From the NCBI GenBank assembly GCA_964634735.1, contig CAZWMA010000002.1, positions 5,652-69,651 on the forward strand: 64,000 nt of DNA. Direction: 5' to 3'. Below the pieces are notes generated by a model. The model searched no databases, had not been told where the DNA came from, and worked only from the letters and a program-made list of their open reading frames with translations. Below are positions 395 through 63,735 of the stretch, piece by piece. The position numbers and the translations under genes are program-made. Position 1 is the first letter of the stretch. Every line of letters begins with the position of its first letter. This DNA comes from an uncultured Nitrososphaerota archaeon (GTDB lineage: Archaea > Thermoproteota > Methanomethylicia > Methanomethylicales > Methanomethylicaceae).

Positions 395-437
395 GTGCGC
401 CTGCGGTTGAATGGGCGCTATGAAGCAGAGTGATGGT

Positions 438-528
438 GGCGGGCCCGTCGGGATTTGAACCCGAGGCTAACGGGTATCTCCGATTGATCTTAAAAGCCCG
501 CTGCTCTACCGTACTGAGCTACGGGCCC
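438..528 (-). tRNA. tRNA-Lys(TTT) with a ~15-nt intron at the canonical 37/38 position, CCA encoded
   Basis: Cloverleaf read by eye on the reverse complement: acceptor GGGCCCG/CGGGCCC, D-arm GCTC..GAGC, anticodon loop CTTTTAA, T-arm TCGGG-TTCAAAT-CCCGA; about 15 extra nt sit between the loop and the 3' anticodon stem. Confidence 0.75.
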
Positions 529-28532: not shown

Positions 28533-28660
28533 GTGGCCGCCAGCTTCCGCGGGTTCCCGGACCCTCTCGGCGTCCAGTACCGCCACAGACGTATGGTGGT
28601 TTAACTACCGTGTTCGGAATGGGAACGGGTGGTTCCCACCAACTATGGCCGGCGCACCGC
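28533..28660 (-). rRNA. 5S rRNA, unlinked from the 16S-23S operon
   Basis: Reverse complement reads ...CCATAG...CCCATTCCGAACACGGTAGTTAAAC...GTACTGG...GAGAGGG...GGGAAC, about 125 nt. A T-rich tract follows the 3' end and a TTTAAAAA box lies ~25 nt upstream. Confidence 0.8.
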
Positions 28661-32555: not shown

Positions 32556-32656
32556 TGGAGCCTCAGGCGGGATTCGGACCCGCGACCACCGCCTGTTTGG
32601 GCAGGGTTCCGCCCGGCTTACCAAGGCGGTGCTCTACCAGGCTGAGCCACTGAGGC
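32556..32656 (-). tRNA. tRNA-Thr(GGT) with a ~24-nt intron at 37/38, CCA encoded
   Basis: Acceptor GCCTCAG/CTGAGGC, D-arm GCTC..GAGC, anticodon stem CCGCC/GGCGG with loop TTGGTAA interrupted by 24 nt; T-loop TCCGAAT. Confidence 0.75.
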
Positions 32657-43716: not shown

Positions 43717-44530
43717 CCCTCGGCATGAATATCGTTCCGATTCGTTCTCCGTTAATTATACTTTCCAGAGCCATATGGAGCTTGCCGTTGGCGATTACCA
43801 TCGGTATGCCATTCTTAGCGGTTATCTTGCCAGCGCGGAGCTTTGTGACCATGCCGCCAAAACCACCATGCCGCTCAGATGCCAACTTCTCAATGCTCAG
43901 GCTTACTTCCTCGACGAATGGAATCAGCTTCGATGATGACGATGCAGGATCCCCGGTATATAGCCCGTCTATGTCAGACAGGAGCACGAGAAGGTCTGCT
44001 TTGAGGTTCACTGCAACGAGCGCCGACAGCGTATCATTGTCGCCAAACTTGATCTCATCGATGGCTATGGTGTCGTTCTCGTTTATTATTGGCACTACGC
44101 CCAAGGATAGGAGCGTCTCAAAGGTGTTTATGAGGTTCTTGGTTCGCTTCTTGTTCCTAAAGTCATCCCATGTGAGCAGGACCTGGGCTACGTTGTAACC
44201 TCGCTCATCCATGGCATCCCGGTATGATTCCATAAGCATGACTTGCCCAACTGCGGCGAATGCTTGGAGGCACTTTATCTCGCCGTTTTTTAGGTGCTCA
44301 CGCATTATTGCCTTTCCTGCCCGTATGGCACCAGATGATACTAGGATAGGATTAATGCCCTTCTCCCGAATAGCAACGAGCTCGTCACAGAGCGCGCCAA
44401 TTTTTCCTGCGTCCAAGAGACCTTGATCGTTTGAGAGTGATGATGAGCCTATCTTAACGACTACGAGCTTTGAGTTCTTAAGCGATGACCGGAGTTTCAT
44501 CTCGCTTGAATTGTCGCTTTGGAACGGCAT
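43703..44530 (-). CDS. proB: glutamate 5-kinase (no PUA domain)
   Basis: Amino-acid kinase family N-terminus VVKIGSSSL...; first gene of the proB-proA-proC order. Confidence 0.8.
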   Translation of the reverse strand: MPFQSDNSSEMKLRSSLKNSKLVVVKIGSSSLSNDQGLLDAGKIGALCDELVAIREKGINPILVSSGAIRAGKAIMREHLKNGEIKCLQAFAAVGQVMLMESYRDAMDERGYNVAQVLLTWDDFRNKKRTKNLINTFETLLSLGVVPIINENDTIAIDEIKFGDNDTLSALVAVNLKADLLVLLSDIDGLYTGDPASSSSKLIPFVEEVSLSIEKLASERHGGFGGMVTKLRAGKITAKNGIPMVIANGKLHMALESIINGERIGTIFMPRVEHD

Positions 44531-44654
44531 AATACCACACTCATTAATAGGACAATCAAAGAGCGGAGAAACAGAATTTTAAACGTTTTGACCGGGATCG
44601 ACAGAAAGCATCAAAAAAGAAGGTTGGAGGACCATGAATTGGTCCTTTAGCGAT

Positions 44655-45275
44655 TCAGCGCTTTGCTTCGAGCTTCTCTAGCAGCATGCGTATCTGCTTT
44701 ACCTCGCCTAGCATTGCAGACGTATCAGCGTCCACTTTTGTAGCTGATGACCCAAATAGAGGCCTCCCTTTTACGATGCCCAGAACAGCCTCCCGGAGTT
44801 CAAGGAAGTCCTCCACATGAATGAATGCGGCCTCGCTTCTTCGAATACGGCCACCTCCACTCCCGCCTGCTTGACCAGTATAGCCTGCGGTAAAAATGTC
44901 AACGGTTCCAATCTTAAGCTTCCTCGATATCGGACCCTGTATCGTATCTACGTTCATTACCCGCGAGTATGGAATGGCGTGGCGCATCTTCCACCACACG
45001 CCCATCTCCGCCCTTACTTCGTGCTCAGTCATAGTGTAGGTTATCGACTTGAAGAATTTCGGAATCCAATAGATGGTAAAGATGGTGGCAATAACTATCG
45101 GCAGATACCCTATCAACAAAATTACCATATAGAACAAGGCATCTTGGAAGTAAAGGAAGTTAACGATAAGAAGCGTTGTTACGATAGCGTAAAGCGGGAT
45201 TACAGTAAGGAGGAGGTATATGGAATAAAGCGCCATCATCTTAGGATGGGGATGGAAAGGCTCGCCGATCTTCAT
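44655..45275 (-). CDS. membrane protein with a bacterial PH (bPH_2/YdbT-like) domain
   Basis: Two N-terminal TM helices followed by a PH-like domain. Confidence 0.45.
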   Translation of the reverse strand: MKIGEPFHPHPKMMALYSIYLLLTVIPLYAIVTTLLIVNFLYFQDALFYMVILLIGYLPIVIATIFTIYWIPKFFKSITYTMTEHEVRAEMGVWWKMRHAIPYSRVMNVDTIQGPISRKLKIGTVDIFTAGYTGQAGGSGGGRIRRSEAAFIHVEDFLELREAVLGIVKGRPLFGSSATKVDADTSAMLGEVKQIRMLLEKLEAKR

Positions 45276-45685
45276 CTTGATTCCTCATGAAACAGTATTC
45301 GTTATGCAGAAATAAGCTTATCGTGGATGGTGTGTTATTGCAGGCACTGAAATTTTGGATGCGGCGCTCTGCGAATATGCAGCAGTTCGCACGTTTTTCT
45401 TAATAATAGTGTTGTTTTCAATTCGAGTAATGAAGCGTAACGACAATAAATTTATATATCATTATGATGACAAGGAAAGACTCCTTCAATGAGACGACCC
45501 TTGCCTCAAGCAAGGCATGACCACGATCGCATAGGACTCGTCTTCGGGAATTCGTGGTTGTGCACGGTCGCCTCCATTGCAAGGCTCTTACTTCCAACCA
45601 GCGCATCCTATGATGCGGTTGCATAACATCCATATGCCAAGGCTTATGAAACTATTAGGTATAGAAAAGAAGCAGGGACAAGCGA

Positions 45686-46210
45686 ATGTCACAAAAATCC
45701 GGAGCCACTGACAAACAAGCCTCTCAAGGAACACAAGGACGAGCATATGCCCACAGCGGAGAGTATGAGGAGCTTCTCGTTGCGACAAAGTCGGGAACCG
45801 AGATAGCTATCAGGATGAAGGAGTTCAGAATACCTTTTCAAGTATGCGAAGCGGACATAAGGGAACTCGATTACGACCTCCGTGAGAAGGAGTTCAAGGA
45901 GATCATTGAGCTCGTATTGGGGAAGGTAGTATTGCTTATTGGTGATAAGAAGCGGCTATCGGGAGTTGCGTGGATAAACAGGTATCCCGGATCGAGCAAA
46001 CCCGAAAAATTCCAAAATTTTGCCAATGAATTCTTTGACGTCGCACTCCCAAACGTCAGCAGCATAATCTTTGCGAAGACAAGGAACGGATGGAAGGTAG
46101 CAGGTTACAAGTTAATCGAGAATAACGAAGCAATCTATGAAAAACTTGCAGGCAGGTTGAAATACGCATTCGAGGAGAGCCAAGGATACATATACCGTAA
46201 GAAGGAGTAG
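45686..46210 (+). CDS. hypothetical protein
   Basis: 174-aa ORF in a lower-GC block; no recognisable motif. Confidence 0.35.
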   Translation: MSQKSGATDKQASQGTQGRAYAHSGEYEELLVATKSGTEIAIRMKEFRIPFQVCEADIRELDYDLREKEFKEIIELVLGKVVLLIGDKKRLSGVAWINRYPGSSKPEKFQNFANEFFDVALPNVSSIIFAKTRNGWKVAGYKLIENNEAIYEKLAGRLKYAFEESQGYIYRKKE

Positions 46211-46264
46211 TTGGATTCTGGATACTCAAACACGCAAGTGAGTCCGTCGCAGATCTTTATCGGC

Positions 46265-46843
46265 CTACTTATGGTTTCTTGCCTCGGACGCTTCGATTTT
46301 TTCAGCTATAAAGTCAACAAGACGTTCAATCTCTCTAAGGAAGATCTTTCCGAAATCCCAGAAGACGAAGACGACTATAGCCAAGACAAGAAACGGAAGG
46401 GCGACAGCCAAGTAAGATCCTATGCCCGGAATGCTGTTAAGGATGGGTATCAGGGCGACGGCAATAATCAACAAGATTACCATTATCAGGAGGTCGTAAG
46501 CGGCTCGTTTTGCGAGCGTTACGTGGTCGGAGGCAAGCCCCTTCAGCAGAACCCGGGTAAGCTTGGATTTTGGGTCCAACAATGCAATTATGTCCCCAAA
46601 TATGCTGTAGAGCAGAACCCCGACTATTGCCAATAGCATAATTGAAGCGGCGGTTATCAACGGGAAGTTCATAACAGGTATCGAAAATCCAAAAGATTGG
46701 AGAAGCGGGAGTATAAAATACCCAACAGCAAGTATGATGGCAAGCAAGAGGGTCCGAGAGAAGACTCGCGTAAGCCTCATTCGGAGCTCTTCGGAGGCAA
46801 TGCTACGTTGCGGCGAGGGGGCGGTCTCTGAAATTGTGCTCAC
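46265..46843 (-). CDS. integral membrane protein, hypothetical
   Basis: Four or five TM segments. Confidence 0.35.
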   Translation of the reverse strand: MSTISETAPSPQRSIASEELRMRLTRVFSRTLLLAIILAVGYFILPLLQSFGFSIPVMNFPLITAASIMLLAIVGVLLYSIFGDIIALLDPKSKLTRVLLKGLASDHVTLAKRAAYDLLIMVILLIIAVALIPILNSIPGIGSYLAVALPFLVLAIVVFVFWDFGKIFLREIERLVDFIAEKIEASEARNHK

Positions 46844-46959
46844 CGATAATTAAGAGGGGGAACTAAAAAATAACTGTTGTTGCCTAAAGACGCCCCCAAT
46901 TAATGCAAAAGCTCTGAAAAGATATATTTTATGCGAGGCAGAGAGATTAAACGATATTC

Positions 46960-48240
46960 TTGACCCTTGATGATTATTCTCCGATTGTTGGCGAGAAGGC
47001 AGTAGCCCAATTGAGGGAGCTTGGGAAGAGCCTTAATGGCAAAAAGGTGCTACACATAAATTCAACATTTGTTGGGGGAGGTGTGGCGGAACTTCTCAAG
47101 TCGATTACACGAATAATGGAAGGCGCCGGCGTGCCTACAGAGTGGAAGGTAATCAACGGTGACCAGGAATTTTTCGACGTGACCAAGGCGTTCCACAACG
47201 CGTTGCAAGGGTCCAAGATTACCATTACTAAGAAGATGACAGATAAGTATGAAGAAATAAACAAGCTTAATGCGGAAACAATGGACCTTGATAGGGATTT
47301 TGTATTCATCCACGACCCGCAGCCGGCACCACTCGTTGCGAAGAGGGGAAAAGATAGTGGTTGGGTATGGCGCTGCCACATAGACATCTCGAATCCAGAC
47401 AAGGCACTCTGGGAGTATCTGTCGAACTATGTCAACAGGTATGATGCGGCTGTTGTTCACGTCCCAGAGTATTCGAAGAGGGACTTGAAGATACCGCAGC
47501 ACATTATTCCACCATCAATCGACCCGCTTGCAGAAAAGAACATGGACCTTCCAGAAAGCTACGTGGAATCGGTTTTGAGGAAGTACGATCTTGATCCAGA
47601 TTTGCCCATAGTGACTCAAGTGTCGAGGTTCGATAAACTCAAAGACCCATTGGGAGTCATGGAGAGCTACGAATTGGCAAAGAAGGGGATTGAGACAGTT
47701 GATTTCAGGCACCTATTTGATGAAGACAAGTTTGCGTTCGACGTATTCAAGACTGTAAGGAATAGGATATTCTTCCAGCTATTGCTTGTGGGAGGGAGTG
47801 CAAACGATGATCCTGAAGGGGAGCGGTTTTATTCAGAGGTTTTCCGGAAGGCAATTACTGACAAGAATGTTCATGTCTTAATGCTGCCTCCGGATGCGCA
47901 TCGTGAGATAAACGCGATACAGAGAGGGTCTACGATAATAATTCAGAAAAGCATCAAAGAGGGCTTTGGGCTTACGGTCACTGAGGGGATGTGGAAGGGT
48001 AAGCCCGTGATTGGCGGTAAGACTGGAGGGATTGTGCATCAAATACAAGACTGGCGCACAGGGTTTCTGGTAAGTTCGCCAACTGAGGCGGCAGAGAGGA
48101 TGCTGTTTCTGTTGAGGAACCCCTTAATAGCGAAGAGGATGGGCAGAGAAGCCAAAGAGCATGTCAAGAAGAACTTCCTTGTTACCAGGCATGCATCGGA
48201 CTATCTGAATATGCTAAAAGGGTTGAAAGCGACTGAGTAG
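46960..48240 (+). CDS. treT: trehalose glycosyltransferring synthase TreT (GT4 family)
   Basis: Matches from memory to archaeal TreT: HINSTFVGGGVAELL, FFDVTKAFHNALQG, WRCHIDIS, PPSIDPL, REGFGLTVTEGMWKGKPVIGG. Confidence 0.8.
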   Translation: MTLDDYSPIVGEKAVAQLRELGKSLNGKKVLHINSTFVGGGVAELLKSITRIMEGAGVPTEWKVINGDQEFFDVTKAFHNALQGSKITITKKMTDKYEEINKLNAETMDLDRDFVFIHDPQPAPLVAKRGKDSGWVWRCHIDISNPDKALWEYLSNYVNRYDAAVVHVPEYSKRDLKIPQHIIPPSIDPLAEKNMDLPESYVESVLRKYDLDPDLPIVTQVSRFDKLKDPLGVMESYELAKKGIETVDFRHLFDEDKFAFDVFKTVRNRIFFQLLLVGGSANDDPEGERFYSEVFRKAITDKNVHVLMLPPDAHREINAIQRGSTIIIQKSIKEGFGLTVTEGMWKGKPVIGGKTGGIVHQIQDWRTGFLVSSPTEAAERMLFLLRNPLIAKRMGREAKEHVKKNFLVTRHASDYLNMLKGLKATE

Positions 48241-48382
48241 TAATCAAGATTAGAAGTAATTACAGGTTTTTTCCTCCAAGAATGGCAACATTACTACTGC
48301 GACTTCTCGTTAAAGAGTTGAAGCATTCATTATAAAAAACTTTATTTTAAGTTATACTATAGTAATATCAGAGGAATACCCT

Positions 48383-48613
48383 ATGGGCTATCTGTTGGGA
48401 TGCAGTAAAGGGCATACGTGGTGGCACTTTACCGACGTTCTGCCATGCCCTCAGTGCGGTTCAACTGTAATCGTAGCAATGTCAGATGAGAGGCCTAGCT
48501 CCAAATGCGAGTGCCCGAAGGGGCACACGTGGTGGACGGAGTACGAACTAGCGCAGTGCTCATTCTGTGGGAACAAGAATATCATAGTACATGGGAAATC
48601 AAAGAAAGCATAA
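48383..48613 (+). CDS. small zinc-ribbon protein with duplicated GHTWW-Cys modules
   Basis: Two repeats of C..KGHTWW...C..CG. Confidence 0.4.
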   Translation: MGYLLGCSKGHTWWHFTDVLPCPQCGSTVIVAMSDERPSSKCECPKGHTWWTEYELAQCSFCGNKNIIVHGKSKKA

Positions 48614-48822
48614 GGCGCTGTTGAGTGGGCATTAACCTGACCTACTCATCCCTTTTTTTGGATATGTGGTCTGATGATTAAATATAAGATTTTTAATAAC
48701 TAAAAACCTTTTTTGAGCGTTAACTATAATATTTTTATTTTCTAAAAAGCGTATGAAAATGGGAATCGCTAAAGCCTGATTAGAAAGCAACGTGTTAGGA
48801 TAGGATGGAAGGAGTGAGCTAG

Positions 48823-49401
48823 ATGATGCTCAGCAACGGCAAAATTGCAGGCGCCTTGCTCTTACTGGGCACCGGGCAATTTGTCATAATGATGCTAGTA
48901 GCCGAGGCGTTGTACCCCGGGTATAGCGTTTCTCATAATTTTATTAGCGATCTGGGTGTTGGAAGAACCGCACCGCTCTTCAACGGATCATTGATAGTAA
49001 CAGGAATAATGACATTGGTATCGGCCAGATACATTGACAGGAGTTTCGCATATCGACCATTGACAATGTTAATGGCGATTACAGGATTGGGGGCAATAGG
49101 GGCAGGGATCTTTCCGGAGAATACAGGGGTGCCGCACATAGCGTTCGCGGTTCTAGATTTTGGCTGTGGAACGCTCGTATCGTTGATAGCTGCCAAGGTA
49201 TGCCCTAATCCAATGAAAGTGTTCGGAGTCATCTCAGCCGGAGTGTCAGCCGTAACCATCATAATGATGATAAGCGGTTTCTACCTGGGGTTGGGCATCG
49301 GCGGCATGGAGAGGATGATTGCTTACCCCATGTTACTCTGGATGCTAGCATTCAGCGGATATATGATGGGGGCTAATCCAGGGCAAACAAGAAGAAGTTG
49401 A
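48823..49401 (+). CDS. DUF998-family membrane protein
   Basis: Multi-TM with the SDLG motif; paralog of the disrupted gene at 34135. Confidence 0.5.
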   Translation: MMLSNGKIAGALLLLGTGQFVIMMLVAEALYPGYSVSHNFISDLGVGRTAPLFNGSLIVTGIMTLVSARYIDRSFAYRPLTMLMAITGLGAIGAGIFPENTGVPHIAFAVLDFGCGTLVSLIAAKVCPNPMKVFGVISAGVSAVTIIMMISGFYLGLGIGGMERMIAYPMLLWMLAFSGYMMGANPGQTRRS

Positions 49402-49407
49402 CCTTGA

Positions 49408-51870
49408 TTACTGCCATGCCGAGACATTTTTCCCATCGCTTTGCTTCCAATATGGAGCCCATGCGAGCGCAACTAACCTTACGGATATCCCGGTCTTCTG
49501 CGGCCTTATTGTAATTGTGTCGAGCGCTTCAGTCAGCGGATTAATCGTCGCCTCTTGTGCCTCTAACTCCTTCTTGAATTCATCTTCGAGCGCTACTTTT
49601 TGGGCTTGAAGAGCCCTTAGGTCATGCTCAGCCTCGGCCTTGTCCGAGGACTCTTTCATGGTTCGACCAAGGTCCCTTGCAGTGCGTGTAACGCCTGTTG
49701 TGGCTTTTCGACCAAGGAAAGACCCGAGAATGGTGGACCCGACGGAGACAGCGGTTTGGAATTGAGTTGCCTTCTTTTGGGCGCTCTGCTGTTCTACAGT
49801 GTTCTGGGCACGTTTTATCTTCTCTTCTATCTTAGAGAGCTGAGTGGCATACTTCTTCCGCAACTTGTCGGATTCATCGTCCCTTTTTTCCTTCGCGAAT
49901 TGCTGCATCCTCGCCCTGAAGTCGCGCTCCAGCTCCCCTGCATGGGAGGTCTCTCCGAATGTCCGGCTTTTTAGGAGATCTATCTTCGAATTCTGATGGA
50001 GCCAAGTTGTCAAATCCTTCTGCCAAAGGGCATAGCTCTTAACGCTTGATGCGGCTGAGGGCAGGTCGGAGAATTTTGCGCCTGATTTTGGCGACGCCTG
50101 AAGGTCACTTGTGTTCATTTGCGATTCCTTGGAGTTGTTCCAGCTTACCGGAATAGGGTTACTAGTCATAGGCGCGATATAGGTCACTTCTTTAGAAAAG
50201 TCGACCCGGGTCTTGGTGTCGGAAAACCTTATGCTGGCAACGCCCAAGGCAGATGGCGCGTAAATCAATGATGAGGAGAGATCGGTTGTCCCCACGGTTG
50301 CAGGTATAAAATATTGGAGTATTTCAGGTGGAAGCATTGGCTTTTGACCAGACGCTGAAGCTGGCGCTAGAGGCGCTGTTGCGGTGGGAGTTTGTGTAGA
50401 GATTACGGCGGCGTCTGTTGTGCCCATAGTAACCGGTGCGGTCTGGCTCTGCGTCTTCTTTAAGGGCATCATCAAAGTCTTGATTTGATTTCTCGTAAGC
50501 GGTCCCGGTAGGTAGGACATTGCCCACCGCGTCTCAAATACAACCGGAGCGGTTTCATGGACATTGTGCATCAAGAAGATGCGCTTGCCCAACGCGCTGA
50601 GGGTCTGATCAAGGTATTTCGTGTCTGCGAGGCTGTCGGATCCAGCAGATATGACCTGCAGCGCCTCGAGGATTCGGAGCTTATCCCTCTCGGTTTGGAG
50701 GCGCCCGATAAACCAAGTTCCAGCGTTCGAAAGCGCCTTGTAATCAAGGTCAACCGGGTTCTGGGTCGCTAGAACAATGCCTATCCCGAATGCCCTAGCC
50801 TGCTTTAGAAGGGTCAGCATGGGCAGTTTCGAAGCAGGGTTCTTGGTGGGGGGGAGGTAACCGAATACTTCATCCATGTATACGATTGCCCTAAGACTGG
50901 TTGTTCCTGACTGCATGCGCATCCACCCAACGACTTGGTTCAGCAGCATCGAGACAAAGAACATGCGTTCAGCATCACTCAGGTGAGCTATGTAGAATAT
51001 TGAGACCTTGGTCTTGCCTTCCTTAGTATGCAGGAACCCGCCAATGTCCATTGGGTCGCCATTCAGCCACAGGTCAAAGCCAGGAGCTGCGAGAAGATTG
51101 TTCAACTGCATCGCCAGTTCAAAACGCTCTTTCTTAGGGTAGAACGCCTCAATCTCAAGCATGCCTATTCGCTGGACCGGGGGCGATTGTATTAGCTGGA
51201 TGAGGGCTCCAATATCAAGGTCTTGACCTTTCTTCCAAGACGTCATGATGATATTTGACAGGAGTATGTGCTCCCTTGAGCGTATTGGGTCGGCGTCTAT
51301 TCCAAGAAGGCCCAACAGGCTTGTAACTGTTGTGTTTATCCGCTCCTGAACCAGTTCAGGGTCTTCCATAAGCTCGGAAGGGGGGGCTGCGAACGATTTC
51401 ATTATGGAGACAGGTGCGCCAGCACTGCTGCCAGGAGTATATATCATGAACTCGACATTATCCCGGAGCTTTTGTATCCGTTCTTTTCCAATTCCCCAAG
51501 AGGAGAGTCCGCTTGTCCATGATGCGGATTGTTTAACAGCGTAGTCATCCAAAGACATACCTTTCTTGGCGGCGTCCTCCTCATTCACCCAAGGCTTGAA
51601 ATCTGAAGGCAAAAGGTTGGGAAATGTCAGGAGCATGTTTGTCATGTCGCCCTTTGGGTCGATAATAATGGAGGGGATATTGTCAAGAGCGGCTTCTTCG
51701 AGGAGGCCGATGCAGAGACCAGTCTTCCCACTTCCGGTCATACCAATGCATACAGCGTGGGTAACGAGATCCTTGGAATCGTAGAGAATCAGCTCTTCGC
51801 CTGGTTTGCTGTTTTGGAGGTCGTACTTCCTTCCAATGTAGAAAACGCCAAGTTTCTCAAAGTCTTGCAT
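49408..51870 (-). CDS. DUF853/YjgR-like HerA-FtsK superfamily NTPase with a long disordered and coiled-coil C-terminal extension
   Basis: Walker A GMTGSGKTG, IIDPKGD, Walker B IVYMDEVF, and ATQNPVDLDYKALSNAGTWFIGRLQTERD. This last motif resembles the ATQNP..LGQLG..RD motif of the YjgR/DUF853 family. The C-terminal ~350 aa are S/T/P-rich followed by K/E-rich coiled coil. Confidence 0.6.
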   Translation of the reverse strand: MQDFEKLGVFYIGRKYDLQNSKPGEELILYDSKDLVTHAVCIGMTGSGKTGLCIGLLEEAALDNIPSIIIDPKGDMTNMLLTFPNLLPSDFKPWVNEEDAAKKGMSLDDYAVKQSASWTSGLSSWGIGKERIQKLRDNVEFMIYTPGSSAGAPVSIMKSFAAPPSELMEDPELVQERINTTVTSLLGLLGIDADPIRSREHILLSNIIMTSWKKGQDLDIGALIQLIQSPPVQRIGMLEIEAFYPKKERFELAMQLNNLLAAPGFDLWLNGDPMDIGGFLHTKEGKTKVSIFYIAHLSDAERMFFVSMLLNQVVGWMRMQSGTTSLRAIVYMDEVFGYLPPTKNPASKLPMLTLLKQARAFGIGIVLATQNPVDLDYKALSNAGTWFIGRLQTERDKLRILEALQVISAGSDSLADTKYLDQTLSALGKRIFLMHNVHETAPVVFETRWAMSYLPGPLTRNQIKTLMMPLKKTQSQTAPVTMGTTDAAVISTQTPTATAPLAPASASGQKPMLPPEILQYFIPATVGTTDLSSSLIYAPSALGVASIRFSDTKTRVDFSKEVTYIAPMTSNPIPVSWNNSKESQMNTSDLQASPKSGAKFSDLPSAASSVKSYALWQKDLTTWLHQNSKIDLLKSRTFGETSHAGELERDFRARMQQFAKEKRDDESDKLRKKYATQLSKIEEKIKRAQNTVEQQSAQKKATQFQTAVSVGSTILGSFLGRKATTGVTRTARDLGRTMKESSDKAEAEHDLRALQAQKVALEDEFKKELEAQEATINPLTEALDTITIRPQKTGISVRLVALAWAPYWKQSDGKNVSAWQ

Positions 51871-51984
51871 GGGGACTCACCAGATCGCAATTTTCAGCAT
51901 TAACGATAACGAGTATAGAGGTCACTTCAAAAAAACATTATCGCTATTAACCGCGTATGGACTCTTAATTTTGTATAAGGGGAA

Positions 51985-52262: not shown

Positions 52263-52337
52263 GGGCTCGTAGCTCAGCTTGGTATGAGCACTCGACTGAT
52301 AATCGAGTGGTCGAGGGTTCGAATCCCTCCGGGCCCA
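52263..52337 (+). tRNA. tRNA-Ile(GAT)
   Basis: GGGCTCG..., D-arm GCTC-AGCTTGGTAT-GAGC, anticodon loop CTGATAA, T-arm GAGGG-TTCGAAT-CCCTC. Confidence 0.85.
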
Positions 52338-52355
52338 CTCAGTTCTCGTTCAGTT

Positions 52356-52697
52356 TTACCGCTTGATCTCAATCATCTTCAGCTTGAAGATGAGTGTCTT
52401 GCCGGCTAGCGGATGGCTTCCTTTGACGCCATATGCCTTCGCTGGCGGGATGGAGACTTCTTTCTCCTCATTTACTTTCATTCCTATAAGCGCCTCTTCA
52501 AAGCCCGGTATGACTTGACCTGCACCAACCTTGACCTGAAGCGGTTTGTAGTCCCTTGAAGGGTTGTAGAGCCCGGCTTTTTGGGCTTCTTTTATCATAG
52601 AGGTGTCGAAGACCTTACCACCGGGGAATTTACCAAGATAATGGACCCGTACAGTATCGCCTTTTTGAGCTGACAAGACTTGAGACATCTTTTTCAC
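52356..52697 (-). CDS. FKBP-type peptidyl-prolyl cis-trans isomerase
   Basis: VHYLGKFPGGKVFDTS...PGFEEALIGMKVNE motifs. Confidence 0.8.
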   Translation of the reverse strand: MKKMSQVLSAQKGDTVRVHYLGKFPGGKVFDTSMIKEAQKAGLYNPSRDYKPLQVKVGAGQVIPGFEEALIGMKVNEEKEVSIPPAKAYGVKGSHPLAGKTLIFKLKMIEIKR

Positions 52698-53212
52698 CTA
52701 TAAGCTGTATTTTCAATACTAAATTCACTATCTAGTAAAGGCGTATATTATTTTGCTAACCTGTGAGTGTTACTTAGATGTGTTTTGCCTTAACTTTGAA
52801 AAAGGAACGCTAAGGACTCCTTAATCTTCAGATAAAAGTTACACCGTTGTAAGCAATTCTTTGAACATTCGATACCCGTCAATTTATTGAGCTGTATAAA
52901 ACAAACAGTCAAAAAAAATCACTGTTATAGTAAAAGTTCAAGGCGCAACACATATATTGAAGTCTCATAAGTAAGGGAGGTGCACGAACTGTAGACAAGT
53001 GCTAACGACAGCCGCGACCTATCGGCGGCGCTGATCGTGACCTTACGGGCCCTAGCCCGAGGGGTGATCGATCGCTCTCCGGTCGCGGTTATAATCATGG
53101 GGACCTGAAAAACGCCGGGGCAAACGCCCTCGGGTCGGATTTAGGTCTTACATTGGACTCGATATCCAACCACGAAATGTGGTTGGGGTTATAACGGGCC
53201 TTGCGGACGTTA

Positions 53213-54709
<1,497 letters not shown>

Positions 54710-54902
54710 ATGTTTGACCCGCTGAACCCCAACCACACGTGAAGGAATGGATATCGAGTCCAATTCATGAGAAGTGATGCAACTGTGGAGGAAACTCCTC
54801 AGTGAAGGGCGTAGCAGGTGGGCCTGACCGGGCCCTACTTGCGATTAGCGCCATGCATAGGTTTCAGTGTTTCTGACACCAGACTAGGTTTAGTAGAAAC
54901 CG

Positions 54903-57927
<3,025 letters not shown>

Positions 57928-63637: not shown

Positions 63638-63735
63638 TGGTAGCGGGGGGTGGATTTGAACCACCGATCTCGGGGTTTCCCAGCCTACACGGGGCATATG
63701 AGCCCCGCGGGATAACCTGGCTACCCTACCCCGCT
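63638..63735 (-). tRNA. initiator tRNA-Met(CAT) with a ~20-nt intron at 37/38, CCA encoded
   Basis: AGCGGGG 5' end with an A1:U72 pair, three consecutive G-C pairs in the anticodon stem (CGGGG/CCCCG), CTCATA[intron]A anticodon loop, T-arm GGTGG-TTCAAAT-CCACC. Confidence 0.75.

Follow-up and report, generated by a model that had tools for sequence, protein, structure and literature searches.

ATPases of the FtsK/HerA superfamily are motors that act in chromosome segregation, DNA repair, conjugation, virus packaging and several immune systems, and they nearly always work with partners. HerA (COG0433/DUF87) is part of the NurA-HerA, SIR2-HerA, DUF4297-HerA and TdpAB systems. HerA-NurA pairs are common in archaea, where the HAS barrel of HerA is the docking platform for NurA, and to our knowledge the described HerA defence systems always include a separate effector (Sir2, DUF4297 or NurA-like). 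In this study a gene of this superfamily was analysed in a stretch of 64,000 nucleotides (hereafter the window) from an uncultured Nitrososphaerota archaeon (contig CAZWMA010000002.1). The gene, a complete open reading frame (ORF) of 820 amino acids with an ATG start, lies at positions 49408..51870 of the minus strand and encodes an ATPase domain, a linker and a C-terminal stalk module. Our analysis identified it as a member of a distinct HerA-class family with a novel C-terminal module; the family, its architecture and its stand-alone status are assigned with high confidence.

Analysis of the N-terminal 465 amino acids revealed intact Walker A, Walker B, ATQNP and arginine motifs. ATQNP (residues 368-372), GRLQTERD (389-396) and the arginines R390 and R395 are invariant across relatives, and the family-specific motifs DPKGD, FPxL..F.PW, TPGS.AG and SREH were found within a helical insertion that separates Walker A from the core strands. 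A proline-rich loop (FGYLPPxxNPPSK) that follows Walker B is a candidate pore or substrate loop. This part of the protein is a P-loop domain of the HerA class that lacks a HAS barrel and, judged by its motifs, is intact in its catalytic residues.

DUF87 (PF01935, the HerA central domain) was the sole Pfam family above threshold (27.2 bits against a cutoff of 23.2, residues 32-84 only) and was matched by all 22 aligned family members. The best matches in the Protein Data Bank (PDB) were HerA proteins, with entry 8wiv at 3.6e-06 for the single sequence (phmmer) and 6e-07 for the family profile. Foldseek comparison of the AlphaFold2 (AF2) model returned HerA-NurA, SIR2-HerA, TdpA, VirB4, DndH-C and TrwB at a probability of 1.0 (E 9e-09 to 1e-05, 12-17% identity), the best template modelling (TM) scores being those of the VirB4 and TrwB cores (TMt 0.53-0.62). 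The intact motifs, the DUF87 match and the Foldseek results uphold the claim of a preliminary description, made from the sequence of the window, that the gene encodes a HerA/FtsK-superfamily NTPase. Canonical HerA can be excluded, since in the AF2 model the P-loop is preceded by just a beta-hairpin (residues 9-31) in the place of the HAS barrel. The NCBIfam HerA equivalogs (NF040819, NF040937 and NF042943) gave 14-22 bits against cutoffs of 800-970, and the HerA, CedB, CedD and TraD models overall gave 14-30 bits against 366-970. FtsK_SpoIIIE was not matched in Pfam or NCBIfam even at E<=10, and no N-terminal hydrophobic segment was found in the ATPase sequence. The PADLOC mad8 and HerA models matched only residues ~289-409, the generic Walker B/sensor region; the mad8 match spans profile positions 173-266 of 314 only and is not a full-length MADS Mad8. 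Within the FtsK/HerA superfamily the ATPase domain falls into the HerA class as a divergent member, neither DUF853 nor canonical HerA. It shares with HerA the additional strand, conserved E (ASCE) core, Walker A, the DPxGx strand, Walker B (DE), the TQNP sensor and the arginine. Unlike HerA, it lacks the HAS barrel, has 12-17% identity to the solved HerAs, is accompanied by no nuclease or Sir2 partner, and adds the large helical insertion, a linker and a C-terminal stalk module of 300 amino acids, the last two absent from all solved HerAs.

The preliminary description had taken the last ~350 amino acids for a disordered plus coiled-coil tail. The S/T/P/A-rich linker and a K/E/R-rich helical region were indeed found; residues 515-820, however, were predicted to form a folded module. 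In the full-length AF2 model (mean predicted local distance difference test score, pLDDT, 71.6; predicted TM score, pTM, 0.48) low confidence (<50) was confined to residues 448-508, and the C-terminal module modelled alone (residues 515-820) reached a mean pLDDT of 83.7. Modelled strands occur before the helical hairpin at residues 519-521, 535-551, 556-567, 581-583 and 630-634, and strands at 784-788, 795-809 and 815-817 rejoin the sheet after it. Comparison of 133 aligned sequences revealed column identities of 0.6-0.85 for the ATPase core, 0.14-0.3 for the linker and 0.25-0.47 for the C-terminal module, in which Y520, Y537, P539, G543, W577, E646, F651, R654, G711, L715, G720-R721 and R732 are conserved. 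The linker has a median length of 43 amino acids across the family (range 11-229). On the AF2 models, the tail is predicted to be a linker of ~50 amino acids followed by a conserved, mostly folded base-and-hairpin module.

The C-terminal module is on the same polypeptide as the ATPase in 142 of 150 diverse representatives, and most of the remaining eight have frameshift-like Arg/Pro/Ala-rich tails or are fragments. A mis-fused ORF, which the preliminary description had named as a possible refutation, and a disordered tail were both ruled out by this family-wide co-linearity and the AF2 models. One relative matched PF27974 (Ninein_long_CC), which was set aside as coiled-coil noise. No solved structure matched the C-terminal module in Foldseek (best E 0.026), and the base-and-hairpin arrangement is a new module. 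Its topology resembles that of HlyD/LipC and Wzc, in which a beta base built from N- and C-terminal segments also carries an inserted antiparallel hairpin; the family module differs in being cytoplasmic and fused to an ATPase, and no significant sequence or Foldseek similarity was found. The similarity is confined to topology and gives no support to homology.

Analysis of the helical hairpin revealed a distinctive tip (residues 701-742), in which the small/hydrophobic patch TAVSVGSTILGSFLG is followed by a basic cluster. G711, L715, G720 and R721 are invariant in the tip. In 128 of 133 members the tip is the most hydrophobic part of the helical region, with a median Kyte-Doolittle value of 1.64 over 11 amino acids. 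The residues that follow G720 carry a net charge with a median of +6, against about -5 for helix 2. Two rare variants were found, one with the tip expanded into a transmembrane-like hydrophobic stretch (P0205) and one with a true transmembrane helix in place of the C-terminal module (P0200). A hydrophobic-plus-basic tip of this kind would fit interfacial binding to a membrane or to a polyanion.

A total of at least 8000 homologs were found by a word-indexed search; the best 120 of these are 794-833 amino acids long (with one exception of 584) and are 56-86% identical to the query at 98-100% coverage. An exhaustive search of 50%-identity representatives found 7,703 at E<=1e-3, 5,464 at E<=1e-10 and 2,216 at E<=1e-30, and the top 150 are mostly ~800 amino acids long. 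When each GTDB species was represented by one genome, at least 597 carriers were found, the best 80 of which have 46-59% identity to the window protein over ~800 amino acids. The hosts of these best 80 loci belong to Methanomassiliicoccaceae and to more than 12 bacterial phyla, and include Chloroflexota, Nitrospirota, Acidobacteriota, Planctomycetota, Verrucomicrobiota, Gemmatimonadota, Actinomycetota, Bacteroidota, Myxococcota, Desulfobacterota, Methylomirabilota, KSB1, Obscuribacterales and Gammaproteobacteria; Bathyarchaeia and other Thermoproteota were present among the named metagenomic matches. In a neighbour-joining tree (85 sequences, 798 columns, no bootstrap) the archaeal sequences form one clade nested in bacteria, with short internal branches. 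Nitrospirota, Actinomycetota and Anaerolineae are coherent in this tree, Acidobacteriota, Planctomycetota, Bacteroidota and Verrucomicrobiota are scattered, and KSB1 clusters with a Cytophagia sequence. The pattern is one of apparent vertical descent inside orders together with transfers, some of them between domains. Judged by sequence, the two-module architecture defines a large uncharacterised family.

The gene neighbourhoods of the family were compared for the best 80 of the at least 597 carrier loci, chosen by similarity and exact peptide patterns; the ATPase ORF was located in 76, and the flanking proteins were clustered all-vs-all. No conserved gene neighbour was found across the 76 loci and synteny is clade-local only. 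The largest neighbour cluster (12 of 76 loci) consists of heterogeneous ABC ATPases at varying distances, and the next clusters are two-component regulators mostly confined to Nitrospira. Immediate neighbours differ in nearly every locus, and a neighbour on the same strand with a gap below 50 nucleotides, on either side, is present in 20 of 73. A lenient search for small ORFs (at least 30 amino acids, within 700 nucleotides) found none common to more than four loci. The clustering and the small-ORF search ruled out a conserved operon partner at these 76 loci. Partners of the NurA, Mre11, Rad50, Sir2 or DUF4297 type are not adjacent to the gene in the window or in the 76 loci, as the preliminary description had observed for NurA in the window.

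Comparison with mobile elements and defence genes gave similar results. PADLOC and Pfam scans of 121 immediate neighbours of the 76 loci found no model or family more than three times. A tblastn search of 50,697 phage records gave no match, and one of 72,556 plasmid records gave a single remote, ATPase-only match (26% identity) on a Methylobacterium megaplasmid whose record is unannotated; the match was uninformative. Relaxase, pilin, VirB, Ced, secretion or pilus genes were not found in the window or in homologous loci. IMG/VR (2.9 million viral contigs) yielded two remote matches only. These searches and the neighbour scan gave no support to a defence or mobile context for the gene. The two IMG/VR matches, on the putative viral contigs L086 (7971-9644) and L087 (7914-9341), are a sister ATPase of 475-557 amino acids that is 35% identical, shares the motifs DPKGD, NPPTK and QNPxDMDYK and has a different, short C-terminus; on both contigs the gene after it encodes a large protein of low complexity that contains an FGE-sulfatase-like domain.

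The structural RNAs of the window (16S, 23S, RNase P and signal recognition particle RNA) are archaeal. The ATPase gene lies downstream of tRNA-Ala and is convergent with a DUF998 membrane-protein gene. Two related genomes (L082/L083 and L084), with orthologs 78% and 86% identical, share the downstream order of a zinc-ribbon gene of 75 amino acids, TreT (variable), an ORF of 174 amino acids, bPH_2, proB-proA-proC and aRF1, and differ from the window on the upstream side of the ATPase gene. The DUF998 gene was found in the window and not in L082 or L084; the TreT trehalose synthase gene is shared by the window and L084 and is missing from L082. DUF998 and TreT are small indels in an otherwise syntenic proBAC/aRF1 neighbourhood. 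This synteny in close relatives indicates that the ATPase gene is ancestral in the lineage and does not lie in an island, contrary to the island-like, possibly defence-related context proposed by the preliminary description. The guanine-plus-cytosine (GC) content is 0.55-0.59 at window positions 1-27000 and 0.45-0.47 at 44000-49000. Despite this lower GC at 44-49 kb, an island was ruled out by synteny with L082, L083 and L084, and the low-GC stretch is for the same reason considered ancestral rather than recently acquired. The refutation that the preliminary description had named, a housekeeping context free of mobile or defence genes, was borne out by half: no mobile or defence association was found, but conserved housekeeping synteny does not extend beyond close relatives. 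The comparisons show the gene to be, on present evidence, chromosomal, without a conserved partner gene and vertically inherited among close relatives.

Other genes of this neighbourhood have features of their own. The zinc-ribbon gene of the window encodes 76 amino acids with the tandem repeats CSKGHTWW...CPQCG and CECPKGHTWW...CSFCG and has a weak Lar-like Pfam match; its 75-amino-acid counterpart adjoins the ATPase gene, in convergent orientation, in L082/L083 and L084 and was not found outside the lineage. The ORF of 174 amino acids has no Pfam or PADLOC match and has the same length and position in L082 and L084.

The best explanation of these results, to which we assign about an even chance, is that the gene encodes an autonomous FtsK/HerA-superfamily translocase with a stalk module. 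The ATPase would form a hexameric ring through whose pore a polymer is drawn at the expense of ATP. Both properties are proposed from the behaviour of the superfamily, and on that analogy a hexameric translocase is fairly probable. The substrate would be universal, since the protein appears to function in widely differing hosts with no partner transferred alongside it and is highly conserved, and it would most likely be DNA, as is the norm for the superfamily; DNA itself is a tentative choice made by analogy. Six C-terminal stalks on flexible tethers would position or regulate the ring, with their hydrophobic-plus-basic tips docking onto an anionic membrane surface or another polyanion, and this anchoring role is likewise put forward tentatively. 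In this role the stalk would be a functional counterpart, though not a homolog, of the FtsK/SpoIIIE anchor and linker or of the FtsK gamma domain. FtsK/SpoIIIE belong to the same superfamily, and the proposed analogy is that both types combine a motor, a long low-complexity linker and a localising or regulating module and have no nuclease partner. The domain order is, however, reversed, FtsK having an N-terminal transmembrane anchor, a linker and a C-terminal motor, whereas the window protein has no gamma winged-helix and its anchor would be a monotopic hairpin tip. The function looks like one in cellular maintenance or stress rather than in an immune system. A bolder extension, which we regard as doubtful, is that the family is an unrecognised class of self-anchoring pumps that perform membrane-proximal translocation or remodelling of DNA or RNA with one gene, their tips resting on the inner membrane face; the spread across Archaea and many bacterial phyla at ~50% identity would then be explained by the lack of need for a host-specific partner.

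Several points weigh against the autonomous, stalk-anchored translocase. The tip patch does not have the length of a transmembrane helix, a Kyte-Doolittle value of 1.6 over 19 amino acids being reached in only 2 of 133 members, and it might just as well make contact with a protein or a nucleic acid. Some members of the superfamily, such as VirB4 and EssC, move proteins and not DNA. Patchy distribution and cross-phylum transfers are typical also of accessory or conflict genes. The AF2 models are of a monomer and were built from shallow alignments (22 and 13 sequences; full-length pTM 0.48), the neighbourhood analysis used crude ORF calls and the 76 most similar loci only, and the plasmid and phage sets are skewed to cultured hosts. 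The literature around YjgR, DUF853, DUF87 and HerA-like proteins held no experimental or other information on any member, in agreement with the earlier statement that no function is established for the family to which the protein had been assigned, YjgR/DUF853; candidate papers dealt with other proteins, DUF877/TssC and the canonical HerA Sll0284.

Among the alternatives, a protein or membrane machine (a polypeptide translocase, unfoldase or membrane-remodelling ATPase whose six stalks form a coaxial barrel or cage like that of HlyD/LipC or Wzc) is unlikely. The structural matches are weak and driven by generic coiled coil, a cytoplasmic module on a floppy linker argues against a rigid coaxial barrel, and the secretion or pilus genes looked for are not nearby.

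A single-gene anti-phage or abortive-infection system, in which invading DNA would be sensed by the ATPase and damage to the membrane would come from the hairpin and its hydrophobic tip as a built-in effector, is quite improbable. The PADLOC matches cover the generic region only, no defence model is enriched beside the 76 loci, and the phage records hold no family member, the plasmid records and IMG/VR almost none. The synteny of the gene in close relatives is stable and core-like, and no separate Sir2, DUF4297 or NurA-like effector is present here. Fast-evolving immune genes are usually far less conserved than the 46-59% cross-domain identity over 800 amino acids found in this family.

A DNA-repair HerA whose nuclease partner (NurA, Mre11 or Rad50) lies at another place in the genome would agree with the archaeal host and with HerA-NurA complexes as the best solved-structure matches. 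Its probability is nevertheless low: the platform on which NurA docks is missing, with only the beta-hairpin at the N-terminus, the HerA equivalog scores are far below cutoff, the three nucleases are not adjacent in any locus compared, and the carriers are mostly bacteria of phyla in which the family occurs alone.

Very little probability was given to the gene being an ortholog or long form of YjgR/DUF853 with the function of YjgR, the assignment made by the preliminary description. Both are stand-alone HerA-like ATPases that share the superfamily motifs, lack a HAS barrel and are similar in the Walker B and QNP region, for which hhalign of the family profile with Escherichia coli YjgR gave 105 columns at 79% probability. 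Sub-threshold matches to PF05872 (DUF853, HerA_C) were found in 17 of 22 members (best 7.1e-06), and some members carry a precomputed PF05872 label. The window protein itself, however, scored 14.7 bits against a cutoff of 22, over profile positions 21-63 (the P-loop) of 502 only, and YjgR (PDB 11kk) ranked below five HerA/DotL entries, at 0.033 for the single sequence and 0.075 for the profile. YjgR has 500 amino acids and neither the linker nor the beta/hairpin stalk module, which agrees with the earlier remark that the C-terminal half is unlike it. The YjgR-like ATQNP motif that had prompted the assignment is present, but the resemblance is at superfamily level. Membership of DUF853/YjgR was ruled out by Pfam at E<=10, the PDB sequence and profile searches and the hhalign comparison.

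An ATPase of a conjugative, DNA-uptake or type IV secretion system-like apparatus (VirB4, VirD4, CedB or CedD-like) is comparably remote: the core fold and its TM-scores, a helical insertion at the position of the TrwB all-alpha domain (TrwB_AAD_bind, 19.1 bits against 20.5; AAA_10 also sub-threshold in Pfam) and weak matches to CedD (3e-07), CedB (6.8e-07) and TraD speak for it, but these matches span only a P-loop segment of ~50 amino acids and are far under the family cutoffs (28-30 bits against 600-700 for CedB/CedD), the protein has no transmembrane segment, conjugation and uptake genes are missing from the window and homologous loci, and the plasmid records hold the single remote match.

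The features of the gene and of the window are collected in Table 1. The ATG start is credible because a GGTGA motif precedes it, an A/T-rich stretch lies upstream, a T-run after tRNA-Ala precedes that stretch, and all relatives align from residue 1.

Table 1. Features of the ATPase gene and other genes in the window (positions in the window; residues of the 820-amino-acid protein).
Feature	Residues	Position	Strand	Basis
Putative translation signal GGTGA, Shine-Dalgarno-like		51877-51881	-	sequence reading; function inferred
Putative A/T-rich TATA-like stretch, ~30-50 nt upstream of ATG		~51897-51920	-	sequence reading; function inferred
ATPase domain: N-terminal beta-hairpin (9-31) replacing HAS barrel, then ASCE core	1-465	50476..51870	-	Pfam, Foldseek, AF2
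Walker A / P-loop GMTGSGKT	43-50	51721..51744	-	invariant across relatives
Mostly helical insertion between Walker A and core strands	~75-285	51016..51648	-	AF2 helices, conservation
Walker B strand AIVYMDE (IVYMDE 329-334); D333 and E334 invariant	328-334	50869..50889	-	family alignment
Pro-rich loop FGYLPPxxNPPSK after Walker B	335-348	50827..50868	-	invariant residues; low pLDDT 337-347
Sensor and arginine region LATQNPVDLDYKxLSNAGTWFIGRLQTERDK, near-invariant	367-397	50680..50772	-	aligns to HerA, YjgR, mad8
Variable Ala/Pro/Ser/Thr-rich flexible linker, ~50 aa	~466-514	50329..50475	-	low pLDDT, column identity 0.14-0.3
N-terminal half of C-module base: long beta-hairpin 535-567, short strands, helix 605-627	515-647	49930..50328	-	pLDDT 73-95
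Antiparallel helical hairpin, ~70 Å: H1 648-718, H2 727-775	648-775	49546..49929	-	
Hairpin tip: small/hydrophobic patch, then basic cluster	701-742	49645..49770	-	hydropathy, charge
C-terminal strands completing beta-sheet base; motif P.K..I.V....L.W.P	776-820	49411..49545	-	AF2, conservation
DUF998 membrane-protein gene		48823-49401	+	
Zinc-ribbon gene		48383-48613	+	
TreT trehalose synthase gene		46960-48240	+	
ORF of 174 aa		45686-46210	+	
16S and 23S rRNA genes		52263-57925	+	
5S rRNA gene		28535-28656	-	
tRNA-like gene		437-528	-	Rfam: tRNA
tRNA-like gene		32559-32656	-	Rfam: tRNA
tRNA-like gene		63638-63735	-	Rfam: tRNA

Analysis of the RNA genes revealed a spacer of ~196 nucleotides without a tRNA between the 16S and 23S rRNA genes and a tRNA-Ile(GAT) upstream of 16S. 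The 5S rRNA gene is unlinked, ~25 kb off and on the opposite strand. Three tRNA-like genes are 92-98 nucleotides long; ARAGORN gave odd anticodons for two and missed the third. They are probably intron-containing archaeal tRNAs.

The family has thousands of members and is abundant in groups that matter in the environment but are poorly studied (Nitrospira, Anaerolineae, Acidobacteriota, Planctomycetota, Bathyarchaeia and Methanomassiliicoccales), and its cross-domain sequence conservation is high for an accessory gene. The case also cautions that 'HerA-like' is not to be equated with 'defence'. Identification of the substrate would establish a new functional branch of the motor superfamily and would provide an annotation for thousands of genes that at present carry the label 'ATP-binding protein' or 'DUF87'.

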